Shown in pieces: positions 10,036 to 19,980 of a DNA stretch of 64,000 nucleotides. The stretch's first letter is position 1, and the number at the start of each line of letters is the position of its first letter. The notes beneath the pieces were generated by a model. The model ran no database searches. It was not told the origin of the DNA and worked only from the letters and a program-made list of their open reading frames with translations. The DNA is taken from contig JAGRNP010000001.1 in the NCBI GenBank assembly GCA_020440705.1, positions 51,787 through 115,786 of the forward strand, in the 5' to 3' direction. Source of the DNA: a bacterium (GTDB lineage Bacteria > Krumholzibacteriota > Krumholzibacteriia > LZORAL124-64-63). A program made the position numbers and the translations under genes.

Positions 10036-10923
10036 ATGACCCTCGGCAACACGACGACCCGCACGGCGGCCCTGACGGGCCTGCTGGCGTTCCTGGCGGC
10101 CGGCGGCGCCGCCGCGGCGCCCCTGCCGGTGGTGGTGAGCATCCTGCCCCAGCAGGAGTTCGTGCGCGCCGTCGGCGGCGACGAGGTCACGGTCGACGTG
10201 CTGGTCGGCCCGGGCCACTCCCCCGCCACCTACGAGCCCACCCCGCGGCAGGTGGCCGGCCTCTCGGCGGCGCGCCTGTTCTTCGCGGCGGGCGTGCCCT
10301 TCGAGCGCGGCATCGTGCCGCGCATCGCCGCCATGCCCGACGGTCCGGTCATCGCCGGCGCCCGCGACTTCGGCCCCGCCGCGGCCCGCGGCCACGACGA
10401 CCACGGGCACGACCACGATCACGGCGACGGCCCCGACCCCCACACCTGGCTCGACCCGGTGCAGGCCATGGCCTTCGCGGACACGGTGTGCGCGCGCCTG
10501 ACCGCCGCCCGCCCCGCCGCGGCCGCGGAATTCGCCGCGCGGCGCGACAGCCTGCGGGCCCGCCTCGCCACCCTCGACCGGGAGATCGCCGCCGAACTGG
10601 CGCCGTGGCGCGGCCGCGCGTTCTTCGTCTTCCACCCCGCCTACGGCCACTTCGCCCGGCGCTACGGCCTCGAGCAGGTGGCCGTCGAGCAGGACGGCCA
10701 CGACCCGGGCGCCAGGCAGGTGGCCGCCGTGGTGGCCCGCGCCCGGGCGGCCGGCGCGACGGTGATCGTGGTGCAGCCCCAGTTCTCGCGCCGCACCGCC
10801 GAGGCGATCGCCCGCGAGGTGGGCGCGGAAATCCTTGTCTTGGATCCCCTCGCGGCGGATTATGAGACGAGCCTGCGGCACATCGCCGCGGCCCTGGCGG
10901 CGTCGTTCGCGTCCGCCCGATGA
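10036..10923 (+). CDS. znuA: Zinc ABC transporter substrate-binding protein (ZnuA/TroA family) with a His/Asp-rich metal-binding loop
   Basis: The internal ATG (residue 32 of the track ORF) is preceded by GAAGGAGA at -8. Signal peptide MTLGNTTTRTAALTGLLAFLAAGGAAAA, then a cluster 9 fold with the flexible loop GHDDHGHDHDHGDGPDPH. Confidence 0.85.
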   Translation: MTLGNTTTRTAALTGLLAFLAAGGAAAAPLPVVVSILPQQEFVRAVGGDEVTVDVLVGPGHSPATYEPTPRQVAGLSAARLFFAAGVPFERGIVPRIAAMPDGPVIAGARDFGPAAARGHDDHGHDHDHGDGPDPHTWLDPVQAMAFADTVCARLTAARPAAAAEFAARRDSLRARLATLDREIAAELAPWRGRAFFVFHPAYGHFARRYGLEQVAVEQDGHDPGARQVAAVVARARAAGATVIVVQPQFSRRTAEAIAREVGAEILVLDPLAADYETSLRHIAAALAASFASAR

Positions 10924-10972
10924 AACGTCCGGCCCGGCCGGACCCAATGCGCGGCCCGACCGCGGAGCCCCC

Positions 10973-11725
10973 GTGTCCGACGTCATCTCCTGCCACGACC
11001 TGAGCTTCGGCTACGACGACCGCGTCGTGCTCGACCACGTGGACATCCGCATCCCCGAGGGCGACTTCGTGTGCGTGGTGGGCGCCAACGGCAGCGGCAA
11101 GACGACCCTGCTCAAGCTCGCCCTCGGCCTGCTCGAGCCGACGCGCGGCCGCATCGAGGTCTACGGGCGGGCGCCGCGGCACACCCGGGGACGCATCGGC
11201 TACGTGCCGCAGCACCCGCGGCTCGACCCCCTGTTCCCCGTCTCGGCCCTGGACGTGGTGCTCATGGGCCGCCTCGGCTGCGGCGCCTCCCTGGGCAACT
11301 GGCGCGGCGCCGACCGCGACCGGGCCCGCGCCGCCCTGGCCGAGGTCGGCCTGAGCGACCGCGCCGGCCACCACTTCGCCGCCCTCAGCGGCGGGCAGAA
11401 GCAGCGCGTGCTCATCGCCCGCGCCCTGGCCGCCGACCCGGACCTGCTGCTCCTGGACGAGCCCACCGCCGGCCTCGACGCCCACGTGGAGGAAGGCTTC
11501 TACCGCCTGCTCGAGGAGCTGAACCGCCGGCTGACCATCGTGCTGGTTTCCCACGACCTGGGCTTCGTCTCGGGCTTCGTCAAGAGCGTGGTGTGCGTCG
11601 GGCGCGAAGTGCTCGTGCACCCGACCACCGAGATCACGGGCGAGATCATCGCCGACCTCTACGGCTCGGACATGCGGCTCGTGCGCCACGACCACCGCTG
11701 CAGCGAGGAAGGGCACCGGCATTGA
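10973..11725 (+). CDS. znuC: Zinc ABC transporter ATP-binding protein
   Basis: GTG start (V47 of the track ORF) with GGAG upstream. VSDVISCHDLSFGYDDRVVLDHVDIRIPEGDFVCVVGANGSGKTT...LSGGQKQRVLIARAL...LLLDEP. Confidence 0.85.
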   Translation: MSDVISCHDLSFGYDDRVVLDHVDIRIPEGDFVCVVGANGSGKTTLLKLALGLLEPTRGRIEVYGRAPRHTRGRIGYVPQHPRLDPLFPVSALDVVLMGRLGCGASLGNWRGADRDRARAALAEVGLSDRAGHHFAALSGGQKQRVLIARALAADPDLLLLDEPTAGLDAHVEEGFYRLLEELNRRLTIVLVSHDLGFVSGFVKSVVCVGREVLVHPTTEITGEIIADLYGSDMRLVRHDHRCSEEGHRH

Positions 11726-12552
11726 GTTTCCTCGACGCCCTCGGCGACCACGCCTTCCTGCGCTACGCCCTGCTCGCGGGCGTGCTGGCCTCGATCCCCT
11801 GCGGGGTCGTGGGCAGCTTCGTGGTGATCCGCCGCATCAGCTACATCGCCGGCGGCATCGCCCACTCGGTGCTCGCGGGCCTGGGCGTGGTCCACTACCT
11901 GCAGGTGGTGCACGGCTTCACGGCGATCAGCCCCATGGGCGGCGCCGTGATCGCGGCGCTGCTGAGCGCGGCGGTGATCGGCGGCGTCAGCCTGCGCCAC
12001 AACCAGCGCGAGGACACGGTCATCGGCGCGGTGTGGGCCATGGGCATGGCCACCGGCATCGTCTTCATCAGCCTGACGCCCGGCTACACCACCGACCTGA
12101 TGAGCTACCTCTTCGGCAACATCCTGCTGGTGTCGGCGGCCGACCTGAAGCTCATCGCCCTGCTCGACGTGGTGGTGCTGGTGACGGTCGGGCTCTTCCA
12201 CCGCCAACTGCTGGCCGTGTGCTTCGACGCGGAGTTCGCCGCCCTGCGCGGCGTGCACGTGCAGCGGTTCACCTTCCTGCTGCTCGGCCTGACCGCCCTG
12301 ACGGTGGTGCTGCTGGTGTCGGTGGTGGGGATCATCCTGGTGATCGCGCTGCTCACCCTGCCCGCCGCCCTGGCCAACCTCTTCGCCCGGCGCCTGTGGC
12401 AGATGATGCTGTTCGCGGCGCTGCTCTGCGTGGGCCTGACGTCGGCGGGCCTGGCCATATCCTACGGGCCCGACCTGCCGGCGGGCGCGGTGACGATCCT
12501 GCTGACGGGCGGGGTGTTCTTCCTGACGTCGGTGCTGCGGAAGCGGGCCTGA
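11722..12552 (+). CDS. znuB: Zinc ABC transporter permease
   Basis: TTG start overlapping the znuC stop (TTGA). LSFLDALGDHAFLRYALLAGVLASIPCGVVGSFVVIRRISYIAGGIAHSVLAGLG..., an 8-TM ABC-3 family permease. Confidence 0.82.
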   Translation: MSFLDALGDHAFLRYALLAGVLASIPCGVVGSFVVIRRISYIAGGIAHSVLAGLGVVHYLQVVHGFTAISPMGGAVIAALLSAAVIGGVSLRHNQREDTVIGAVWAMGMATGIVFISLTPGYTTDLMSYLFGNILLVSAADLKLIALLDVVVLVTVGLFHRQLLAVCFDAEFAALRGVHVQRFTFLLLGLTALTVVLLVSVVGIILVIALLTLPAALANLFARRLWQMMLFAALLCVGLTSAGLAISYGPDLPAGAVTILLTGGVFFLTSVLRKRA

Positions 12553-12609
12553 CGGATCGCGACCACCGCGGAAACAAAAACGCCGCCGGGTGACCGGTGG
12601 CGTCTTGTT

Positions 12610-12963
12610 TGGTGGAGGCGGCGGGAATCGAACCCGCGTCCGTAACCGGTTCCCCGGCGACATCTACATGCTTAGCCGCTTGTTGTTTAACCCGGGAAGA
12701 GGCCCAGCGGCCCGCCGCTTCAGGGGCTAGCCTCACTTTTGTTTCGCCCCGCGACCAGAGGCCTGACGCGGAACTATCCACCGTAAATGGCGCCCCTTGG
12801 CGGCGGTACGGTGGCCCCCCACCGCCGGGACGGGCAGCTTAACTAAGCCGCCAGTGCGAAGTTGTTTTCGTCACTTAATTGGTTTCCACCCGTTTAACGA
12901 GACTGGCGGGATCTCGGCATGCAGTCCCCGGTCCCCCGACCACGTCGAAACCAGGTCGCCCCC
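12610..12963 (-). ncRNA. ssrA: tmRNA (SsrA), one-piece form
   Basis: The minus-strand 5' end is GGGGGCGACCTGGTTTCGACG... and the 3' end is ...GCGGGTTCGATTCCCGCCGCCTCCACCA. The acceptor stem has a G3:U70 pair (tRNA-Ala identity). The internal ORF AGT GAC GAA AAC AAC TTC GCA CTG GCG GCT TAG encodes a tag ending ...DENNFALAA-stop. Confidence 0.85.
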
Positions 12964-13116
12964 CACATTCAGCGGAGAAGTCCGGGACCGGACCGGCCTT
13001 CAATATAGCACACGGCCGGCCGGCCGGCCACGGCGATCGCAGGGGCTTCCGGCCCGCGGCCGCCCGTGGTACGATGCCGCGGTTGTGCCCCGCACCCCCT
13101 CCCCCGAGGTTCCATC

Positions 13117-15168
13117 GTGAAGTCCCGTCTGACCGTCGCGATCTGCCTGCTGCTGGCGCTCGCCGCGCCGGCGTCCGCCGTCGACCTGCCCCCCGGCGAG
13201 CAGCCGCCGCCGACGCCGCTCAGCCGCCTTGCGGCCGCCGGCACCGCCGACGACCACCCCGGCGCCGACCACGTGGTCGTCTTCGAGCACGCCGTCAACC
13301 GGGTCAAGCCCAGCGGCGTGACCGACGTGGACGGCTACCGCCTGGTGAAGGTGCTCACCCCGCACGGGGCGCGCGACCGCTCGGTGCTCGACTGGCACTA
13401 CGATCCCCAGAGCCAGCACCTGGAGATCCGCGAGGTGAACGTCATCCGCGACGGCGAGCGCCTGCCCGTCGACGTGACGGCGGTGCAGGACCTGCCGGCG
13501 CCCCAGTCGATGATCTACTGGCGCGACCGGGTCAAGACCCTGCAGCTGCCCCGCCTGCGGGTGGGCGACGGCATCGAGGTGCGCACCTTCAGCAAGGGCT
13601 TCACCTACGCGCTGCTGGGCGAGGGCGGCGGCGCCGCGGGCGGCGCTTCCGGAGACGCATCCGGCGGATCGGACGCGGCCCCAGACGACAGTCGCTACAT
13701 CCCCCCCATGCCCGGCGAGTACTTCGACATCGTGCTCTTCCGGGGCGACGCGCCCATCGTCGAGAAGCGCTACGAACTGGTGCTGCCCGCCGACAAGCGC
13801 CTGCACGCCGAGGTGTACAACGGCGGCCTCTACTCGAGCGTGACCTACGACGAGGCCACCACCACCTACGCCTGGTGGGGCCTGGACCTGCCCGCGCAGG
13901 TGCACGAGCCGGCCCAGCCGGACGCCTCGGACATCGTGCCCAAGGCCGTCATGGCCACGGCCGCGAGCTGGGAAGCCAAGAGCCGCTGGTTCTTCGACGT
14001 GAACCGCAACCAGTTCGAGGCCACGCCGGCCATCGCCGCGAAGGTGGCCGAGATCCTCGACGACGCCGGCCTGAAGCGCGCCGACGACGAGCGCAAGGCC
14101 AGGAAACTGGTGCACTGGGTGGCCCAGAACATCCGCTACAGCGGCCAGACCATGGGCGAGGGCGAGGGCTTCACCCTGCATCCGGGCGACATGATCTTCG
14201 AACAGCGCAGCGGCGTGTGCAAGGACATCGCCGGCATGCTCATCACCATGATGCGCGCCGCGGGGCTGGACGCCTACGCGGCCATGACCATGGCCGGCAG
14301 CCGCATCGACGCCGTGCCGGCCGACCAGTTCAACCACTGCGTCACGGCCCTGCGCCTGCCCGACGGCTCGTTCCGCATGTACGACCCGACCTGGGTGCCC
14401 TACAACAACGACATCTGGTCCAAGAGCGAGACCGAGCAGCACTACCTGGTGGGTTCGCCCGAGGGCGAGACCCTCAGCCGCATCGCCTACAGTCCGCCGG
14501 CGGAGTCGCCGCTGAAGATCAGGCACGAGGCGCAGCTCGCCCAGGACGGCACCCTCACCGGCACCTTCCGCTTCGACGGCGGCGGGGCGTCGGACAGCCG
14601 CCTGCGGCGCCTGGTGAACGGGTCGCGCATCCGCGAGCTGGACGCCGCCTGCGCCCGCATCCTGGCCGTGGTCAGCCCGCGCGTCCAGGACGTGCGCTGC
14701 ACCCACCGCGCCGCCGACGACTTCGCGGGCGACATGTGGATCGAGATCGCGTACCGCATTCCCGGCTTCGCCGGCGCGGTGGCCGGCGAGTGGACCTTCA
14801 CCAGCCCGATGATGCAGGTGGTGATGAGCAACGGCACCCTCTTCCGCGCGGGCGCCTCGTCCTGGGCGGACGCGCGCGAGACGGACCTCATGCTGTGGTA
14901 CACCCAGCTCGTGGACGGCGAGGAGACGATCCGGCTGCCGGGCGGCTGGCAGCTCGCGGACGCGCCGGCCGTCGACCCGGTGGACGAGACCTACGCCGCC
15001 TTCAGCGGCACGGCCGCCCAGGACGGCCGCCGCCTCCGCGTGACCCAGCGGGCTGAGGTGCGCCGCCGGCAGATCCCGCCCGACGGGTATCCCGGCTTCG
15101 TCGCCGCCATGACCGCGGCGCGCACCTGGGCCGACCAGGAGTTCCGCTTCACGAAGGGAGGCCGCTGA
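13117..15168 (+). CDS. Secreted transglutaminase-like cysteine protease-fold protein (DUF3857 plus transglutaminase core)
   Basis: A GTG start (alternative ATG at 13066) gives the signal peptide VKSRLTVAICLLLALAAPASA. Core motif ...EQRSGVCKDIAGMLITMMRAAGLDAYAA... carries the catalytic Cys, with His and Asp downstream. High GC3 in frame. Confidence 0.78.
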   Translation: MKSRLTVAICLLLALAAPASAVDLPPGEQPPPTPLSRLAAAGTADDHPGADHVVVFEHAVNRVKPSGVTDVDGYRLVKVLTPHGARDRSVLDWHYDPQSQHLEIREVNVIRDGERLPVDVTAVQDLPAPQSMIYWRDRVKTLQLPRLRVGDGIEVRTFSKGFTYALLGEGGGAAGGASGDASGGSDAAPDDSRYIPPMPGEYFDIVLFRGDAPIVEKRYELVLPADKRLHAEVYNGGLYSSVTYDEATTTYAWWGLDLPAQVHEPAQPDASDIVPKAVMATAASWEAKSRWFFDVNRNQFEATPAIAAKVAEILDDAGLKRADDERKARKLVHWVAQNIRYSGQTMGEGEGFTLHPGDMIFEQRSGVCKDIAGMLITMMRAAGLDAYAAMTMAGSRIDAVPADQFNHCVTALRLPDGSFRMYDPTWVPYNNDIWSKSETEQHYLVGSPEGETLSRIAYSPPAESPLKIRHEAQLAQDGTLTGTFRFDGGGASDSRLRRLVNGSRIRELDAACARILAVVSPRVQDVRCTHRAADDFAGDMWIEIAYRIPGFAGAVAGEWTFTSPMMQVVMSNGTLFRAGASSWADARETDLMLWYTQLVDGEETIRLPGGWQLADAPAVDPVDETYAAFSGTAAQDGRRLRVTQRAEVRRRQIPPDGYPGFVAAMTAARTWADQEFRFTKGGR

Positions 15169-17042
15169 TGAAGAGCCTCACGATCCTGCTGCTCGTGGCC
15201 GCCGCCGGGCTGCCTGCATTGGCCGCCGCCGGCCCCGGCGTCTCGAACGGGCACGACCTCGACGCGCTGTGGGCCCGGGCCGAGGCGGGGCACGACCTCG
15301 CGCGCGAGGACGCCGTGGTGCTGCTCGACGACCTGTCCGTCACCGTCGCCGCCGACGGGACCATCGCCACCCGTCTGCACACCGTCGTGTGGATCGGCAC
15401 CGCCCAGGGCATCCGGCACTACGCCGACCTGCGCGTGCCCTGGAACGCGGCGACGTCCACCCTCGACGTGGAACTGCTGCGCACCTGGCGCGACGACCGC
15501 TGGTGGCCCGACGCCGCACGCATCAGCGAGACGGCCGTGGTGCACACCCTGCCCTACGCCGTGCGCGCCGCCCCCGACTACGCCGACCTGCGGGAGACCA
15601 TGCTGCTGCACGACGGCATCGAACTGCCCTGCCTCGTGGAGACGGCCTACACCATCACGGAGCGGGGCCGGCCGGTGGCGGACGGGTCGTTCGGGTTCCG
15701 CGTCGCGGATCCCGCGGTGCGGATCGCGCGGTCGGTGAGCCTGCCGGCGGGCGGCGAACTCGTCGTCGACGGCCGCTTCGGCGCGCCGGCGGCGCAGCGC
15801 GACGGCGCGTCGTGGACCTGGGTCGCCGAGGACGCGCCCCCCCACGCCTGGCCTGTCGCCGGCGACGTGCGGACCTACGAGCCGACGGTCTTCTGGTCCG
15901 CCGGCGCCGACGCGGCCGCCGCCGGCCGCGCCTGGTCCGACGCCTTCGAGGCGGCGGTGGCCGGGTACGACGCCGACGCCCTCGCTCCCGACCTGGGCGC
16001 CGCCGTGGCCGGGGCCGCCGGTGGCGTGGCCGAGGTCCGGGCGGTGCTCGGGTTCCTGCGCGACACGGTCCGGCCGGTCGGCACCGCGCCGGCGCCCTGG
16101 CGTTTCCGGCCCCGCACCGCTGCGCGCACCTGGGACACGGCGTACGGCCATGTCCTGGACCGGGCGGTCCTCGCCACCGCCGTCCTGCGCGGCCTGGGTT
16201 GGCGCGTGGCGCCCCGCTTCGCCGTCGAAGACGCGGCGTCGGTCGACCACGCCCTCGAACTGGGCCGCCTGGTGCTGGTCGTCGATCATGCCGGGGACGC
16301 GTCGGCGCTGATCGTCGACGCCGCGACGGGCGCGCTCGGCGACGGCGCCGACGCGGCGGCCCTGGTCGATCCCGCCGCAGCCACCACGGCGATCTCCGAC
16401 GCGCCCGCGTCCGACTTTGCTCTCGTGATCAGCCTCGCGCCCGGGAAGGAGGGCGCCTGGCAGGGCACGGGCCGGCTCGCGACCCGCGGCCTCTTCGCCA
16501 CCGCGGCGCCGTTCCTCGCCGGCGGCGACGGGGTGCGCGACCACGTCGCGGCGGTGGTGGGCTCGGTGCTCCCGGACGCGACGGTGGACGGCGTGAACGT
16601 CCGGCTCGCCGGGCCGGGAAGGCACGAGGTCGAGTTCGCCGTGACGGTGCCCGCGCCCGAGGGCGACGAGATGCGCTTCGTCGTCGGCTCGCCCGCCGGC
16701 GGCCTGCCCGCGGCCCTGCCCCACGACGTGAACGTGGCCGACGCGGCGCGGCAGTCGCCCATCGCCTGGCGCGGGGCCGCGCGCCAGAGCGTCACCCTGC
16801 GCCTGGATCTCGGCGGGCGCACCGTGGTGCACCGGCCGGCCGATCGCGACCTGAGCGCTGACAGCGGCCTCTTCCAAGCCGTGACGACCGCTGACGACGA
16901 CCGGCTGACCTTCCGGCGCGAGCTCACGCTCGTGGCCGCGCGGGCTCCGGAGCACTGGCCGTCGGTGCGCGGGCTGCTGCTGGCGGAGACCGACGCCGCC
17001 GCGGCGACGATCGTGCTGGGCCCGGCTTCGGCCGCGGACTAG
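15168..17042 (+). CDS. Secreted paralogue of the preceding transglutaminase-like protein (DUF3857/3858-like). It lacks the catalytic Cys, so it is a putative pseudo-enzyme partner.
   Basis: TGATG stop/start overlap with the upstream gene. Signal peptide MKSLTILLLVAAAGLPALAAAGPG. Very high GC3 in frame. The region homologous to the TGase core reads TWDTAYGHVLDRAVLATAVLRGLGW, with no Cys. Confidence 0.62.
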   Translation: MKSLTILLLVAAAGLPALAAAGPGVSNGHDLDALWARAEAGHDLAREDAVVLLDDLSVTVAADGTIATRLHTVVWIGTAQGIRHYADLRVPWNAATSTLDVELLRTWRDDRWWPDAARISETAVVHTLPYAVRAAPDYADLRETMLLHDGIELPCLVETAYTITERGRPVADGSFGFRVADPAVRIARSVSLPAGGELVVDGRFGAPAAQRDGASWTWVAEDAPPHAWPVAGDVRTYEPTVFWSAGADAAAAGRAWSDAFEAAVAGYDADALAPDLGAAVAGAAGGVAEVRAVLGFLRDTVRPVGTAPAPWRFRPRTAARTWDTAYGHVLDRAVLATAVLRGLGWRVAPRFAVEDAASVDHALELGRLVLVVDHAGDASALIVDAATGALGDGADAAALVDPAAATTAISDAPASDFALVISLAPGKEGAWQGTGRLATRGLFATAAPFLAGGDGVRDHVAAVVGSVLPDATVDGVNVRLAGPGRHEVEFAVTVPAPEGDEMRFVVGSPAGGLPAALPHDVNVADAARQSPIAWRGAARQSVTLRLDLGGRTVVHRPADRDLSADSGLFQAVTTADDDRLTFRRELTLVAARAPEHWPSVRGLLLAETDAAAATIVLGPASAAD

Positions 17043-17064
17043 GCACAAGGACGACCGCAACGCC

Positions 17065-17093
17065 GAAGGCGCGCCGGGATCCGGCGCGCCTTC
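17065..17093. terminator. Perfect 13-bp-stem palindrome between convergent genes (DUF3858-like and PrpD)
   Basis: GAAGGCGCGCCGG gat CCGGCGCGCCTTC. Confidence 0.4.
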
Positions 17094-17120
17094 TCGCGTT
17101 CGGCAGCGGTGGGGACGGGT

Positions 17121-18512
17121 CTACTTCTCCGCCACCAGCAGCTTCATGTACGCCTTGATGTCGGTGCACCCGTCGAAGCCCCACGTCGCCTCGATGACGG
17201 CGTCCTGGCGCTCGCGCGAGATCACCGCCTCGCTGTTGGCCCGGAACTTGGCGATCAGTTCGTCGTCGCTGAGCGGGTTCTGCGGGCTGCCCTTGGCGTG
17301 GTCGACGGTCTTCTCGAAGGAGCGCCCGTCGCTGGTCGTGATGGTCGCGATGGCCCGCTTGGTGCCGGGGAACATGGCGTCGATCTCGGCGTTGGCCACG
17401 ACCTTGATCTTGCCGAGCAGCGCCCGGATGCGCGGGTCGAAGAGCTTGTCCTGCTCGAAGCTGTTGGGGTAGACGCCGCCGTCGGCCGCGACGGCCGCCA
17501 GGCAGTAGGGCAGGCTGTGGTCGGCGGTCTCCTTGGTCTGCGGATCGTACTTCGAGGGGTCCGAGAGGATGTCCGCGCCGCGGGCGGTGGTCTGGATGTG
17601 GATCGAGGCCACGTCCTCGGCCACCAGGCCGTTCTCCTTCATGATGCCCTGCACCGCCGACATGGGCTGGTGCGTGAGGGCCTCGGTGGGGAAGGCCTTG
17701 TAGCCGCAGTCGGTGATGAGGAACGTCTCCCCCAGCCCCTCGAGCAGGATCTCCGGCTTCAGCTTCACGGTCGGGATGACGTGTTCGAAGCCCTCCTTGC
17801 CCTCGATGACCTCGACGGGTCCCTCGTAACCCTCGGCGGCCATCTGGGCCGCGAGCACGCCGGCCTGGGTGGCCAGGGGGTCGGCGGTGTTCTTCATGTT
17901 GGTCAGCGCGCCGGCCACGACGCCGCCCTGGGTGTAGTGGCTGCTGCCGCTGATGCCCGCCGCGGCGACCATCTGCGCCCGGTCCAGGCCGTACATGCGA
18001 CCGGCCACGAAGGGGCTCACGAACTGCGTCAGGGTGGCGTGGTGCCAGCCCACCTCGCGCACGCCCGGGAAGCAGGCCAGGCACCAGCGCATCTCCAGCT
18101 CGTACGCGATCATGATGCCGACCAACGCCTCGCGGCCGTCGCGGCCCAGGGCTTCGGCCGGACTGATGGCGCCGAAGATGATGTCCGAGGGATGGCTCGG
18201 GTCCTGCTCCCAGTAGATGTCGTTGTAGTCGAGGGCCCGCACCAGGAGGCTGTTCATCAGGGCCGCGCCGGCGGCGTTGGTCCGGGCGCCGGTGCCGATG
18301 AGCGTGCTCTCGGGCGTGCCGCCCTGGCGGGCGATGAAGCGGTACATGGCGGCCATGTCCCTGTTGTTCACGGCGGCCAGGGCGCAGCCCACGCTGTCCA
18401 GCAGGAAGCGCTTGGCCTCCTTGATGGAGACCGCGGGGATGTCCTCGTATTTCAGGTTGATGGCGAAATCGGCCATCCTGCCGGTCAGGCTGTCTTGGGG
18501 GGCGTGGCTCAT
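17121..18512 (-). CDS. MmgE/PrpD family protein (2-methylcitrate dehydratase / IRG1-like)
   Basis: 463 aa with full-length PrpD-family similarity (...AAGISGSSHYTQGGV...CGYKAFPTE...). GGAGG RBS. Confidence 0.88.
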   Translation of the reverse strand: MSHAPQDSLTGRMADFAINLKYEDIPAVSIKEAKRFLLDSVGCALAAVNNRDMAAMYRFIARQGGTPESTLIGTGARTNAAGAALMNSLLVRALDYNDIYWEQDPSHPSDIIFGAISPAEALGRDGREALVGIMIAYELEMRWCLACFPGVREVGWHHATLTQFVSPFVAGRMYGLDRAQMVAAAGISGSSHYTQGGVVAGALTNMKNTADPLATQAGVLAAQMAAEGYEGPVEVIEGKEGFEHVIPTVKLKPEILLEGLGETFLITDCGYKAFPTEALTHQPMSAVQGIMKENGLVAEDVASIHIQTTARGADILSDPSKYDPQTKETADHSLPYCLAAVAADGGVYPNSFEQDKLFDPRIRALLGKIKVVANAEIDAMFPGTKRAIATITTSDGRSFEKTVDHAKGSPQNPLSDDELIAKFRANSEAVISRERQDAVIEATWGFDGCTDIKAYMKLLVAEK

Positions 18513-18618: not shown

Positions 18619-19980
18619 CTAGACCACGCCCTGGTCCAGCATCGAGTCGGCGACCTTCAGGAAGCCGGCGATGTTGGCGCCGTTGACGTAGTTGCCCGGC
18701 GTGCCGAACTCGTTGGCGGCCGCCATGCTCGCTGCGTGGATGCTCTTCATGATGCCGTGCAGTTTCTGATCGACCTCTTCGCGGGTCCAGTTGTAGCGCA
18801 TGCTGTTCTGCGACATCTCCAGGCCGGAGACCGCCACGCCGCCGGCGTTGGCGGCCTTGCCCGGACCGTAGAGGATCTTCGCGTCGACGAAGTGGTTCAC
18901 GCCGTCGGGAACCGTCGGCATGTTCGCGCCCTCGCTGACGACGTAGACGCCGTTGCGCAGCAGGTTCTTGGCGTCCTGCTCGTTGATCTCGTTCTGGGTC
19001 GCCGAGGGGAACGCGCAGTCGGCCTTGTGGTCCCACAGGGGATTGTGGTCCATGCCCGGATCGACGGCGGTGTAGACGGCGCCGGGGAACTTGTCGGCGT
19101 ACTCCTTCACGCGGCCGCGCCTGACGTTCTTCAGATCCATCAGGAAGGCCAGCTTCTCGCGCGTGAAGCCCGCCTCGTCCAGGATGTAGCCGCCGCTGTC
19201 CGAGCAGGTGATCGGCTTGGCGCCCAGGTCGAGCAGCTTCTCGATGGTGTACTGGGCCACGTTGCCGGAGCCCGAGACCAGGGCGGTCTTGCCCTCGAGG
19301 GTCTCGTTGCGCGTACCCAGCATCTCGGCCGCGAAGTACACGGCGCCGTAGCCGGTGGCCTCGGGCCGGATGAGGCTGCCGCCCCAGTTCAGGCCCTTGC
19401 CCGTCAGCACGCCCACGAACTCGTTGCGCAGCTTCTTGTACTGGCCGAAGAGGAAGCCGATCTCCCGGCCGCCGACGCCGATGTCGCCCGCCGGGACGTC
19501 GGTGTTGCCGCCGATGTGGCGGAAGAGCTCGCTCATGAAGCTCTGGGTGAAACGCATGACTTCGAGGTCGCTCTTGCCCTTGGGGTCGAAGTCCGAACCG
19601 CCCTTGCCGCCGCCCATGGGCAGCGTCGTCAGGCTGTTCTTGAAGACCTGCTCGAAGGCCAGGAACTTGAGGATGCCCAGGTTCACGCTCGGATGGAAAC
19701 GCAGGCCGCCCTTGTAGGGGCCGATGGCGCTGTTCATCTCGATCCGGAAGCCCTTGTTGACCTGGACCTCGCCCTTGTCGTCCACCCAGGGGACACGGAA
19801 CAGGATGACACGCTCGGGCTCGACGATGCGCTCCAGGATCTTGGCCTTGCGGTACTCCGGACGCTTGTCCAGCACCGGCCAGATGGATTCGACGACCTCT
19901 TCGACCGCCTGGTGGAACTCCACTTCCGCAGGGTTCTTGGCGATGACGTTTTCCATGAAGGCAGCAACGTTCTGGGCCAT
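18619..19980 (-). CDS. gdhA: NADP-specific glutamate dehydrogenase (hexameric 50-kDa class)
   Basis: 453 aa, MAQNVAAFMENVIAKNPAEVEFHQAVEEVVESIWPVLDKRPEYRKAKILERIVEPERVILFRVPWVDDKGEVQVNKGFRIEMNSAIGPYKGGLRFHPSVNLGILKFLAFEQVFKNSLTTLPMGGGKGGSDFDPKGKSDLEVMRF... matches E. coli GdhA along its full length. Confidence 0.92.
   Translation of the reverse strand: MAQNVAAFMENVIAKNPAEVEFHQAVEEVVESIWPVLDKRPEYRKAKILERIVEPERVILFRVPWVDDKGEVQVNKGFRIEMNSAIGPYKGGLRFHPSVNLGILKFLAFEQVFKNSLTTLPMGGGKGGSDFDPKGKSDLEVMRFTQSFMSELFRHIGGNTDVPAGDIGVGGREIGFLFGQYKKLRNEFVGVLTGKGLNWGGSLIRPEATGYGAVYFAAEMLGTRNETLEGKTALVSGSGNVAQYTIEKLLDLGAKPITCSDSGGYILDEAGFTREKLAFLMDLKNVRRGRVKEYADKFPGAVYTAVDPGMDHNPLWDHKADCAFPSATQNEINEQDAKNLLRNGVYVVSEGANMPTVPDGVNHFVDAKILYGPGKAANAGGVAVSGLEMSQNSMRYNWTREEVDQKLHGIMKSIHAASMAAANEFGTPGNYVNGANIAGFLKVADSMLDQGVV

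Follow-up and report, generated by a model that had tools for sequence, protein, structure and literature searches.

Hydrolases and amidases of the transglutaminase fold include LapG, PeiW/PeiP, PNGase and protein glutaminase. LapG, a periplasmic protein with a Cys-His-Asp triad, consists of a single small domain of about 180-220 amino acids (aa) and is controlled by LapD, a receptor for cyclic di-GMP. Here, we describe ORF1 and ORF2, two overlapping open reading frames (ORFs) in a 64,000-nucleotide stretch of a Krumholzibacteriota genome (contig JAGRNP010000001.1, positions 51,787 to 115,786; hereafter, the window), which we are somewhat inclined to read as a self-contained operon of two genes that encodes a secreted enzyme together with a dead subunit, the two being ancient paralogues of the transglutaminase/papain-like cysteine fold. 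Whereas LapG lacks DUF3857, DUF3858 and a paralogous dead partner, ORF1 is a 683-aa protein of three domains. In the Pfam scan, the LapG-type profile BTLCP matched neither ORF1 nor ORF2 at E values up to 1, and no recurrent neighbour of any kind was found beside the pair in related loci, although no search was aimed at a LapD-type gene in particular.

Two other known systems invite comparison. Inactive proteins of the transglutaminase fold, such as Rad4/XPC and erythrocyte protein 4.2, are eukaryotic and intracellular, and they are neither adjacent to nor coupled with an active paralogue. Among the M16 peptidases, including the alpha and beta subunits of mitochondrial processing peptidase and bacterial M16B pairs, an active subunit is encoded next to a paralogue that lacks the catalytic motif, and the two form one joint enzyme in which the dead subunit helps to bind substrate. 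The likeness of ORF1 and ORF2 to such heterodimers would be one of working principle only, as M16 enzymes are zinc metallopeptidases of unrelated fold and chemistry, and a complex is suggested here by analogy.

Neither family is new to the catalogues, which list both under DUF names, and pairs of an enzyme and a pseudoenzyme are a familiar theme. DUF3857 and DUF3858 have been mentioned in passing as a lolA neighbour in Xanthomonas (PMC6341742), and the outer-membrane-vesicle proteome of Tannerella forsythia lists, among its bacterial proteins, two annotated with these domains, of 648 and 544 aa (PMC10682907). The one relevant structure, PDB 3kd4, is that of BDI_1141 from Parabacteroides distasonis, deposited in 2009 by structural genomics as a "putative protease." Full-text searches with DUF3857, DUF3858, 3KD4, BDI_1141 and periplasmic transglutaminase-like pseudoenzymes returned no study of the pair or its function, and in the literature we found no experimental function for any DUF3857-family member, none having been published for 3kd4. 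An earlier note on this DNA, made from the sequence alone, had called the arrangement recurrent but uncharacterised; the incidental mentions above and the same gene order in Bacteroidales, described below, bear this out. What is new is modest: the strictness of the coupling, its age across Bacteroidota-related lineages and the recognition of 3kd4 as the dead partner.

Domain architecture and catalytic residues

ORF1 and ORF2 both contain a DUF3857 domain (PF12969), with Pfam scores of 91.8 bits (E = 6.6e-26) and 56 bits (E = 6.5e-15), respectively, above the cut-off of 24.6 bits. ORF1 also matches Transglut_core (PF01841, clan Peptidase_CA; E = 1.9e-9), scoring 38.2 bits where the cut-off is 23. 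Of the three domains for which the earlier note had proposed a search, DUF3857, Transglut_core and DUF3858, the first two are found in ORF1 and DUF3857 in ORF2; the DUF3858 (PF12970) match of ORF1 is weak (14.2 bits, E = 0.048) and falls under the 27-bit cut-off, while the window ORF2 itself has DUF3857 as its only Pfam match and none to DUF3858. Across members of the ORF2 family, DUF3857 is matched in 38/38, DUF3858 in 34/38 (best E = 2.4e-11) and Transglut_core in 13/38, and the C-terminus of 3kd4 aligns with both family profiles, that of ORF2 covering 3kd4 residues 419-503. NCBIfam holds no family for either protein.

Direct sequence comparison does not relate the two proteins, as BLASTP of ORF1 against ORF2 yields nothing significant (best E = 0.5); a phmmer search with ORF1 against PDB sequences gave no match. 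When 34 ORF1 homologues (alignment A1) and 38 ORF2 homologues (alignment A2) are compared as profiles by hhalign, the two families align with a probability of 97.5% and an E value of 7.6e-12 over 575 columns, running from the N-terminal domain through the C-terminus. AlphaFold gives a good model for ORF2 (mean predicted local distance difference test score, pLDDT, of 87), with 3kd4 as its best match, an N-terminal domain that resembles Ost1/ribophorin I and the N-domain of M1 aminopeptidases, and a central domain of transglutaminase fold. The best fold match of the ORF1 model is also 3kd4 (E = 2.4e-22). Because the profile alignment and the best matches of both models agree, ORF1 and ORF2 are distant paralogues with full-length homology and a common plan of DUF3857, transglutaminase-like core and DUF3858-like domain. 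The paralogy proposed in the earlier note thus holds, at a depth visible to profiles and not to BLASTP.

A search with ORF1 found 3659 homologues, the top ones being 60-80% identical; within the clade, identity to ORF1 is 51-80%. Inside its DUF3857 domain, ORF1 carries a low-complexity insert rich in Gly, Ala and Ser (aa 163-186, positions 13603-13674), which is variable among homologues and modelled with a pLDDT below 50.

The catalytic residues separate the two proteins. The segment SGVCKDIAGM, on which the earlier note had based its assignment of a Cys-His-Asp core, spans ORF1 residues 365-374 and includes Cys368, which together with His407 and Asp423 is invariant in 60/60 orthologues and is also kept in the upstream genes of Bacteroidales. 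In the profile alignment, this triad maps to Val329, Leu370 and Asp384 of ORF2, the first of these lying in the segment TAYGHVLDRAV (residues 324-334). Across 60 ORF2 orthologues, the Cys position is occupied by A/D/G/R/V/P/T/S/E and never by Cys, and the His position by L/V/I/A and never by His; nor does either residue appear at its position in 91 further full-length representatives of ORF2 clusters. The Asp, on the other hand, is present in 52/60 orthologues and 75/91 further representatives, within a conserved Y-D-P motif that mirrors the Y-D-P of ORF1. In the ORF2 model, residue 329 opens a helix (329-342), and residues 370 and 384 are on the next two strands, a predicted placement that matches the canonical topology of the fold. 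Of the two observations that the earlier note had named as fatal to its interpretation, a triad retained in ORF2 or a lack of homology between the proteins, neither was found, although its description of the triad as lost applies to the Cys and His and not to the Asp. By these residues, ORF2 is a predicted conserved pseudoenzyme for cysteine-protease/transglutaminase chemistry, that is, a putative non-catalytic homologue of the transglutaminase fold.

ORF2 is under selection and not a decaying copy, because the gene is intact in all loci (well over 100, at about 620-650 aa) and has invariant blocks of its own. One of these, T-A-Y-G-H-x-L-D-R-A, surrounds the former active site, where the conserved residues are Tyr326, Gly327, His328 (53/60), Asp331, Arg332 and Asp384. 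The other, RETMLLHDG.ELPC in the N-domain (aa 142-155, positions 15591-15632, within DUF3857), is the most conserved stretch of an otherwise fast-evolving protein, and the ORF2 locus search, which worked with two peptide patterns chosen as the most conserved, took one of them (RETMLLHD) from it. His148, Asp149 and the lone Cys155 of this block are invariant in 38 sequences, and among the further 91 representatives His148 is kept in 80 and Cys155 in 82. Cys155 could serve at an interface, in a ligand site or in a disulfide.

Conservation and age of the pair

The earlier note had also proposed that the two genes overlap at TGATG and are translationally coupled, and both points are upheld. The ORF1 stop codon (TGA, 15166-15168) shares one base with the ORF2 ATG at 15168, and the Shine-Dalgarno (SD) site of AAGGGAGG sits within the final ORF1 codons, 6 nt 5' of that ATG. 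A scan based on ORF2, with one genome per species, returned 80 loci, 75 of which had enough upstream DNA to be assessed. In all 75, an ORF1 homologue lies directly 5' of ORF2, the overlap being 1 nt (TGATG or TAATG) in 42 and 4 nt (ATGA or GTGA) in 33, and an SD-like motif is present within the last 18 nt of ORF1 (75/75). A metagenome scan based on ORF1 likewise returned 80 loci, with identities down to 41%, and in the 62 that were assessable an ORF2-type gene is always directly 3' (62/62), with an overlap of 1 nt (27) or 4 nt (35). Strict co-occurrence with a stop/start overlap was thus observed in 137/137 assessable loci, and the pairing looks obligate.

The junction has left a mark on the enzyme itself. 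The C-terminal residues of ORF1 homologues are nearly always similar to K/E-G-G-K/R (EKGGK, KGGAR), at 15151-15165 in the window and at the equivalent position in L003-L082. As the AAG GGA GGC codons of this tail double as the SD site of ORF2, the C-terminus of the enzyme and the ribosome-binding site are mutually constrained.

By their titles, the loci from the ORF2 scan are mostly metagenome-assembled genomes (MAGs) of Krumholzibacteriota, Eisenbacteria and Latescibacterota, and a few bear other labels, which may be binning artefacts. In the Krumholzibacteriota-type clade, the partner is the faster-evolving of the two, with a mean pairwise identity of 41% as compared with 64% for the enzyme. 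The pairwise identities in the two families are correlated (r = 0.82), and we set this aside as a sign of interaction, since shared phylogeny explains the correlation. The loci L013, L042, L044, L048, L049, L060, L064 and L074 are labelled Fibrobacteraceae, Gemmatimonas or Aminicenantes; their proteins are as close to those of the window as are the proteins of Krumholzibacteriia MAGs, and errors of binning or labelling are a more probable cause than lateral transfer. The window contains no further paralogue of the pair.

Outside this clade, we turned to 3kd4, for which a 291-residue fragment was rebuilt from printed alignments and then used to find Bacteroidales relatives. The ORF2 family profile matches 3kd4 with an E value of 4.9e-19, as opposed to 3e-5 for that of ORF1, and 3kd4 has SAYGTPLE at the position of SGVCKD in ORF1. 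Because the ORF2 profile fits far better and the Cys-containing motif is replaced, 3kd4, the sole solved structure of the family, is assigned to the cysteine-less partner type. It differs from ORF2 in being of Bacteroidales origin, only about 15-16% identical and about 120 residues shorter, and it does not share the ORF2 residues His328 and Cys155.

On Bacteroidales contigs (Phocaeicola and another), a gene for a 651-663-aa protein with DUF3857 and Transglut_core is followed by a 3kd4-like gene of about 500 aa with DUF3857 and DUF3858; at the Phocaeicola locus (L084/L085), the two proteins are 663 and 508 aa long. As in the window, the active gene comes first and the Cys-less gene second: the upstream protein retains GVCKD, FNHCV and DPTWVP, whereas the downstream protein lacks Cys and His at those positions. 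Along its full length, ORF1 is 33-34% identical to the proteins encoded upstream in Bacteroidales (E = 1e-115 to 1e-123), and ORF2 is 22-25% identical to the downstream proteins (E = 1e-6 to 8e-11), with each Bacteroidales member being the best match of its window counterpart. Because the order is the same and each member is closest to its counterpart, the division of labour is older than the split of the phyla: the ancestral gene was duplicated, and one copy lost its nucleophile, before Bacteroidota and the Krumholzibacteriota-type lineages diverged.

One Parabacteroides-like contig (L083, coverage about 2x) contains a gene that is identical to the 3kd4 fragment, but of the transglutaminase-type partner expected 5' of it, no more than the final ~165 residues are detectable (1394-1995; 48% identity by tblastn), divided among small called genes. 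This remnant may reflect faulty assembly or decay of the partner in the strain concerned.

Against protein clusters at 50% identity, the ORF2 profile finds 14,359 at E ≤ 0.001 and 471 at E ≤ 1e-30. The DUF3857 family is thus very large, and it comes as a fixed pair of an enzyme and a dead paralogue. The fixed pairing, its age from before the split and the structure of a dead partner together give a concrete hypothesis that points to the genetically tractable Bacteroidales. They also correct a likely misreading of 3kd4 as a protease; otherwise, the case is one of ordinary enzyme/pseudoenzyme evolution.

Proposed function and alternatives

In the two-gene operon that we propose, both proteins would be exported, most likely to a periplasmic or envelope-associated location. 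Export is suggested by their N-termini and by the Tannerella vesicle proteome: the signal-like segment of ORF1 is modelled as an N-terminal helix (residues 2-15), and ORF2 begins with a hydrophobic, signal-like segment modelled as a helix (2-13). ORF1 would be the catalytic subunit, in which Cys368-His407-Asp423 attacks an amide or isopeptide bond via a thioester intermediate, hydrolysis being likelier than cross-linking, with acyl transfer possible and less likely. ORF2, with the same three-domain fold and without the nucleophile and the general base, would be translated by ribosomes that reinitiate where ORF1 ends, with the two genes always expressed together as a result, and it would bind ORF1 as a non-catalytic subunit for substrate recognition or regulation. 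The substrate may be an envelope protein or peptide. In M1 aminopeptidases, the N-domain that the modelled N-terminal domain of ORF2 resembles faces the substrate, which would suit a role in handling peptides, if weakly so.

Several observations weigh against this proposal. Gene context offers no clue to the substrate, and both signal peptides were assigned by visual inspection. In the ORF1 model the outer domains are good, but the catalytic core (residues 339-457) has a pLDDT below 50, because the alignment is too shallow (an effective number of sequences, Neff, of about 2), and the geometry of the ORF1 triad is thus predicted from sequence only. The coupling proves co-expression and not interaction. 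Finally, the Bacteroidales genes are 6-10 nt apart without overlap; their junction also has no SD motif, and the partner there is shorter, at about 500 aa.

A more ambitious version of the proposal is possible, though we would not count on it: the pair may be an obligate heterodimeric envelope enzyme of an undescribed functional class, extending from human-gut Bacteroidales to Krumholzibacteriota, Eisenbacteria and Latescibacterota, in which the dead paralogue forms half of a pseudo-symmetric substrate-binding chamber for the housekeeping processing of envelope proteins, lipoproteins or cell-wall peptides. If so, 3kd4 would be a regulatory subunit mislabelled as a protease.

The alternatives part ways first over whether the two proteins meet at all. 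Given that coupling speaks to co-expression only, ORF1 could be a stand-alone enzyme and ORF2 a separate binding protein that reuses an old fold, with no complex between them. The ORF2-type Parabacteroides protein 3kd4 was indeed crystallised alone, and ORF2 has conserved surface motifs of its own. Nevertheless, neither gene was found without the other in the 137 assessable loci, and the order and junction are fixed across phyla with a strictness that would be unusual for mere co-regulation, so that we regard independent action as unlikely.

The chemistry of ORF1 is a separate matter. Cross-linking transglutaminases share its fold and triad, and ORF1 could accordingly be one of them, joining proteins of the envelope or matrix through isopeptide bonds. 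The two chemistries look alike at the level of sequence, but most characterised bacterial members of the fold are hydrolases or amidases, and a true cross-linking activity seems to us a rather slim prospect.

Also to be considered is a role for ORF2 as a latency factor or chaperone, a paralogous decoy that shields the ORF1 active site, like an in-trans prodomain or inhibitor, until the site of action is reached. The residues kept in its pseudo-active site (Tyr326, Gly327, His328, Asp331, Arg332 and Asp384) suggest a retained capacity for binding, and the order of enzyme first and coupled partner second resembles that of effector/immunity pairs. The conservation of ORF1 across phyla, however, fits a housekeeping enzyme and not an arms-race toxin, and it is not usual for an immunity protein to be a full-length paralogue of its effector. 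We reject a toxin/immunity reading on these grounds, ORF1 being highly conserved and the two proteins paralogous, and consider a latency factor in the broader sense improbable.

That ORF2 catalyses a different reaction, for example via the His148/Asp149/Cys155 hairpin (invariant in 38) or via His328 (53/60) and Asp331 in a remodelled pocket, is very hard to credit, as Cys155 is Ala in 3kd4 and in 1/2 Bacteroidales partners examined, Asp149 and His328 are both Thr there, the D-G-x-E hairpin is conserved in ORF1 as well and looks like a structural signature of DUF3857, and neither Pfam nor NCBIfam matched a known catalytic motif; the hairpin itself we judge an unlikely alternative site given its lack of conservation in the Bacteroidales partners.

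Coordinates, gene starts and neighbourhood

The positions of the pair and its features are collected in the table. For ORF1, the longest frame begins at a GTG at 13066 and gives the 700 aa of the earlier note, whose 624 aa for ORF2 stands. A second GTG at 13117, the coordinate at which that note places the start of the pair, gives 683 aa and is the better start, because the public protein P0001 has 683 residues (100% identity and coverage to this form), GAGG lies 7 nt upstream, and the product opens with the signal-peptide-like segment VKSRLTVAICLLLALAAPASA.

Table. Features of the ORF1/ORF2 locus, in window coordinates
Feature	Position	Strand	Description and basis
tmRNA gene	12610-12963	minus	Rfam, 184.7 bits; tag peptide DENNFALAA
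SD-like GAGG	13106-13109	plus	7 nt 5' of the ORF1 GTG start; read from sequence
ORF1	13117-15168	plus	683 aa; DUF3857/transglutaminase-like core/DUF3858-like; putative catalytic subunit; ORF list, Pfam
ORF1 predicted signal peptide	13117-13179	plus	aa 1-21, VKSRLTVAICLLLALAAPASA; Ala-x-Ala, then VD; read from sequence
ORF1 DUF3857 domain	13336-13896	plus	aa 74-260; Pfam envelope
ORF1 transglutaminase-like core	14080-14388	plus	aa 322-424; Pfam PF01841
ORF1 triad codons	14218-14220; 14335-14337; 14383-14385	plus	Cys368; His407; Asp423
ORF1 C-terminal DUF3858-like domain	14872-15132	plus	aa 586-672; weak Pfam match and profile alignment to 3kd4 C-terminus
Coupling junction	15154-15170	plus	AAGGGAGG; SD for ORF2, then TGATG (stop 15166-15168, start 15168-15170)
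ORF2	15168-17042	plus	624 aa; non-catalytic paralogue (predicted); DUF3857/pseudo-transglutaminase core/DUF3858-like
ORF2 predicted signal peptide	15168-15230	plus	about aa 1-21, MKSLTILLLVAAAGLPALAAA; read from sequence
ORF2 DUF3857 domain	15351-15842	plus	aa 62-225; Pfam
ORF2 pseudo-transglutaminase core	15912-16370	plus	about aa 249-401
ORF2 equivalents of triad codons	16152-16154; 16275-16277; 16317-16319	plus	Val329 (for Cys); Leu370 (for His); Asp384 (Asp kept)
ORF2 C-terminal DUF3858-like domain	16779-17027	plus	about aa 538-620; 34/38 family members match PF12970

The earlier note had placed the pair just after a transfer-messenger RNA (tmRNA) gene. Such a gene is indeed present, but it is on the minus strand and transcribed away from the pair, and none of the fetched flanks of 48 related loci has a tmRNA near the pair (0/48). 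We therefore reject a link between the two and regard the adjacency as incidental.

No third conserved gene was found beside the pair in related loci. The only recurrent cluster in the flanks consists of generic large multi-domain surface proteins, which occur on either side and either strand at 28 loci. The flanks of L001 and L002 contain several large proteins with C-terminal domains of FlgD_ig type, as in type IX secretion cargo, and the 28-locus cluster probably represents proteins of this kind. The Pfam scan found no FlgD_ig-type domain in ORF1 or ORF2.

In the window, translations of the neighbouring genes read as an ABC transporter, its ATPase bearing Walker A and signature motifs and preceding a permease (10835-12552, plus strand), a 463-aa MmgE/PrpD-like protein (17121-18512, minus strand) and a 453-aa glutamate-dehydrogenase-like protein (18619-19980, minus strand), none of which is conserved beside the pair in relatives. 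A promoter/terminator scan of 12500-17400 found no sigma-70-like promoter, and its sole hairpin lies 5' of the pair, beside the tmRNA. This GC-rich hairpin with a T-run (12580-12603) is situated between the 3' end of the tmRNA and the end of the upstream plus-strand ORF at 12552, and it could terminate both.

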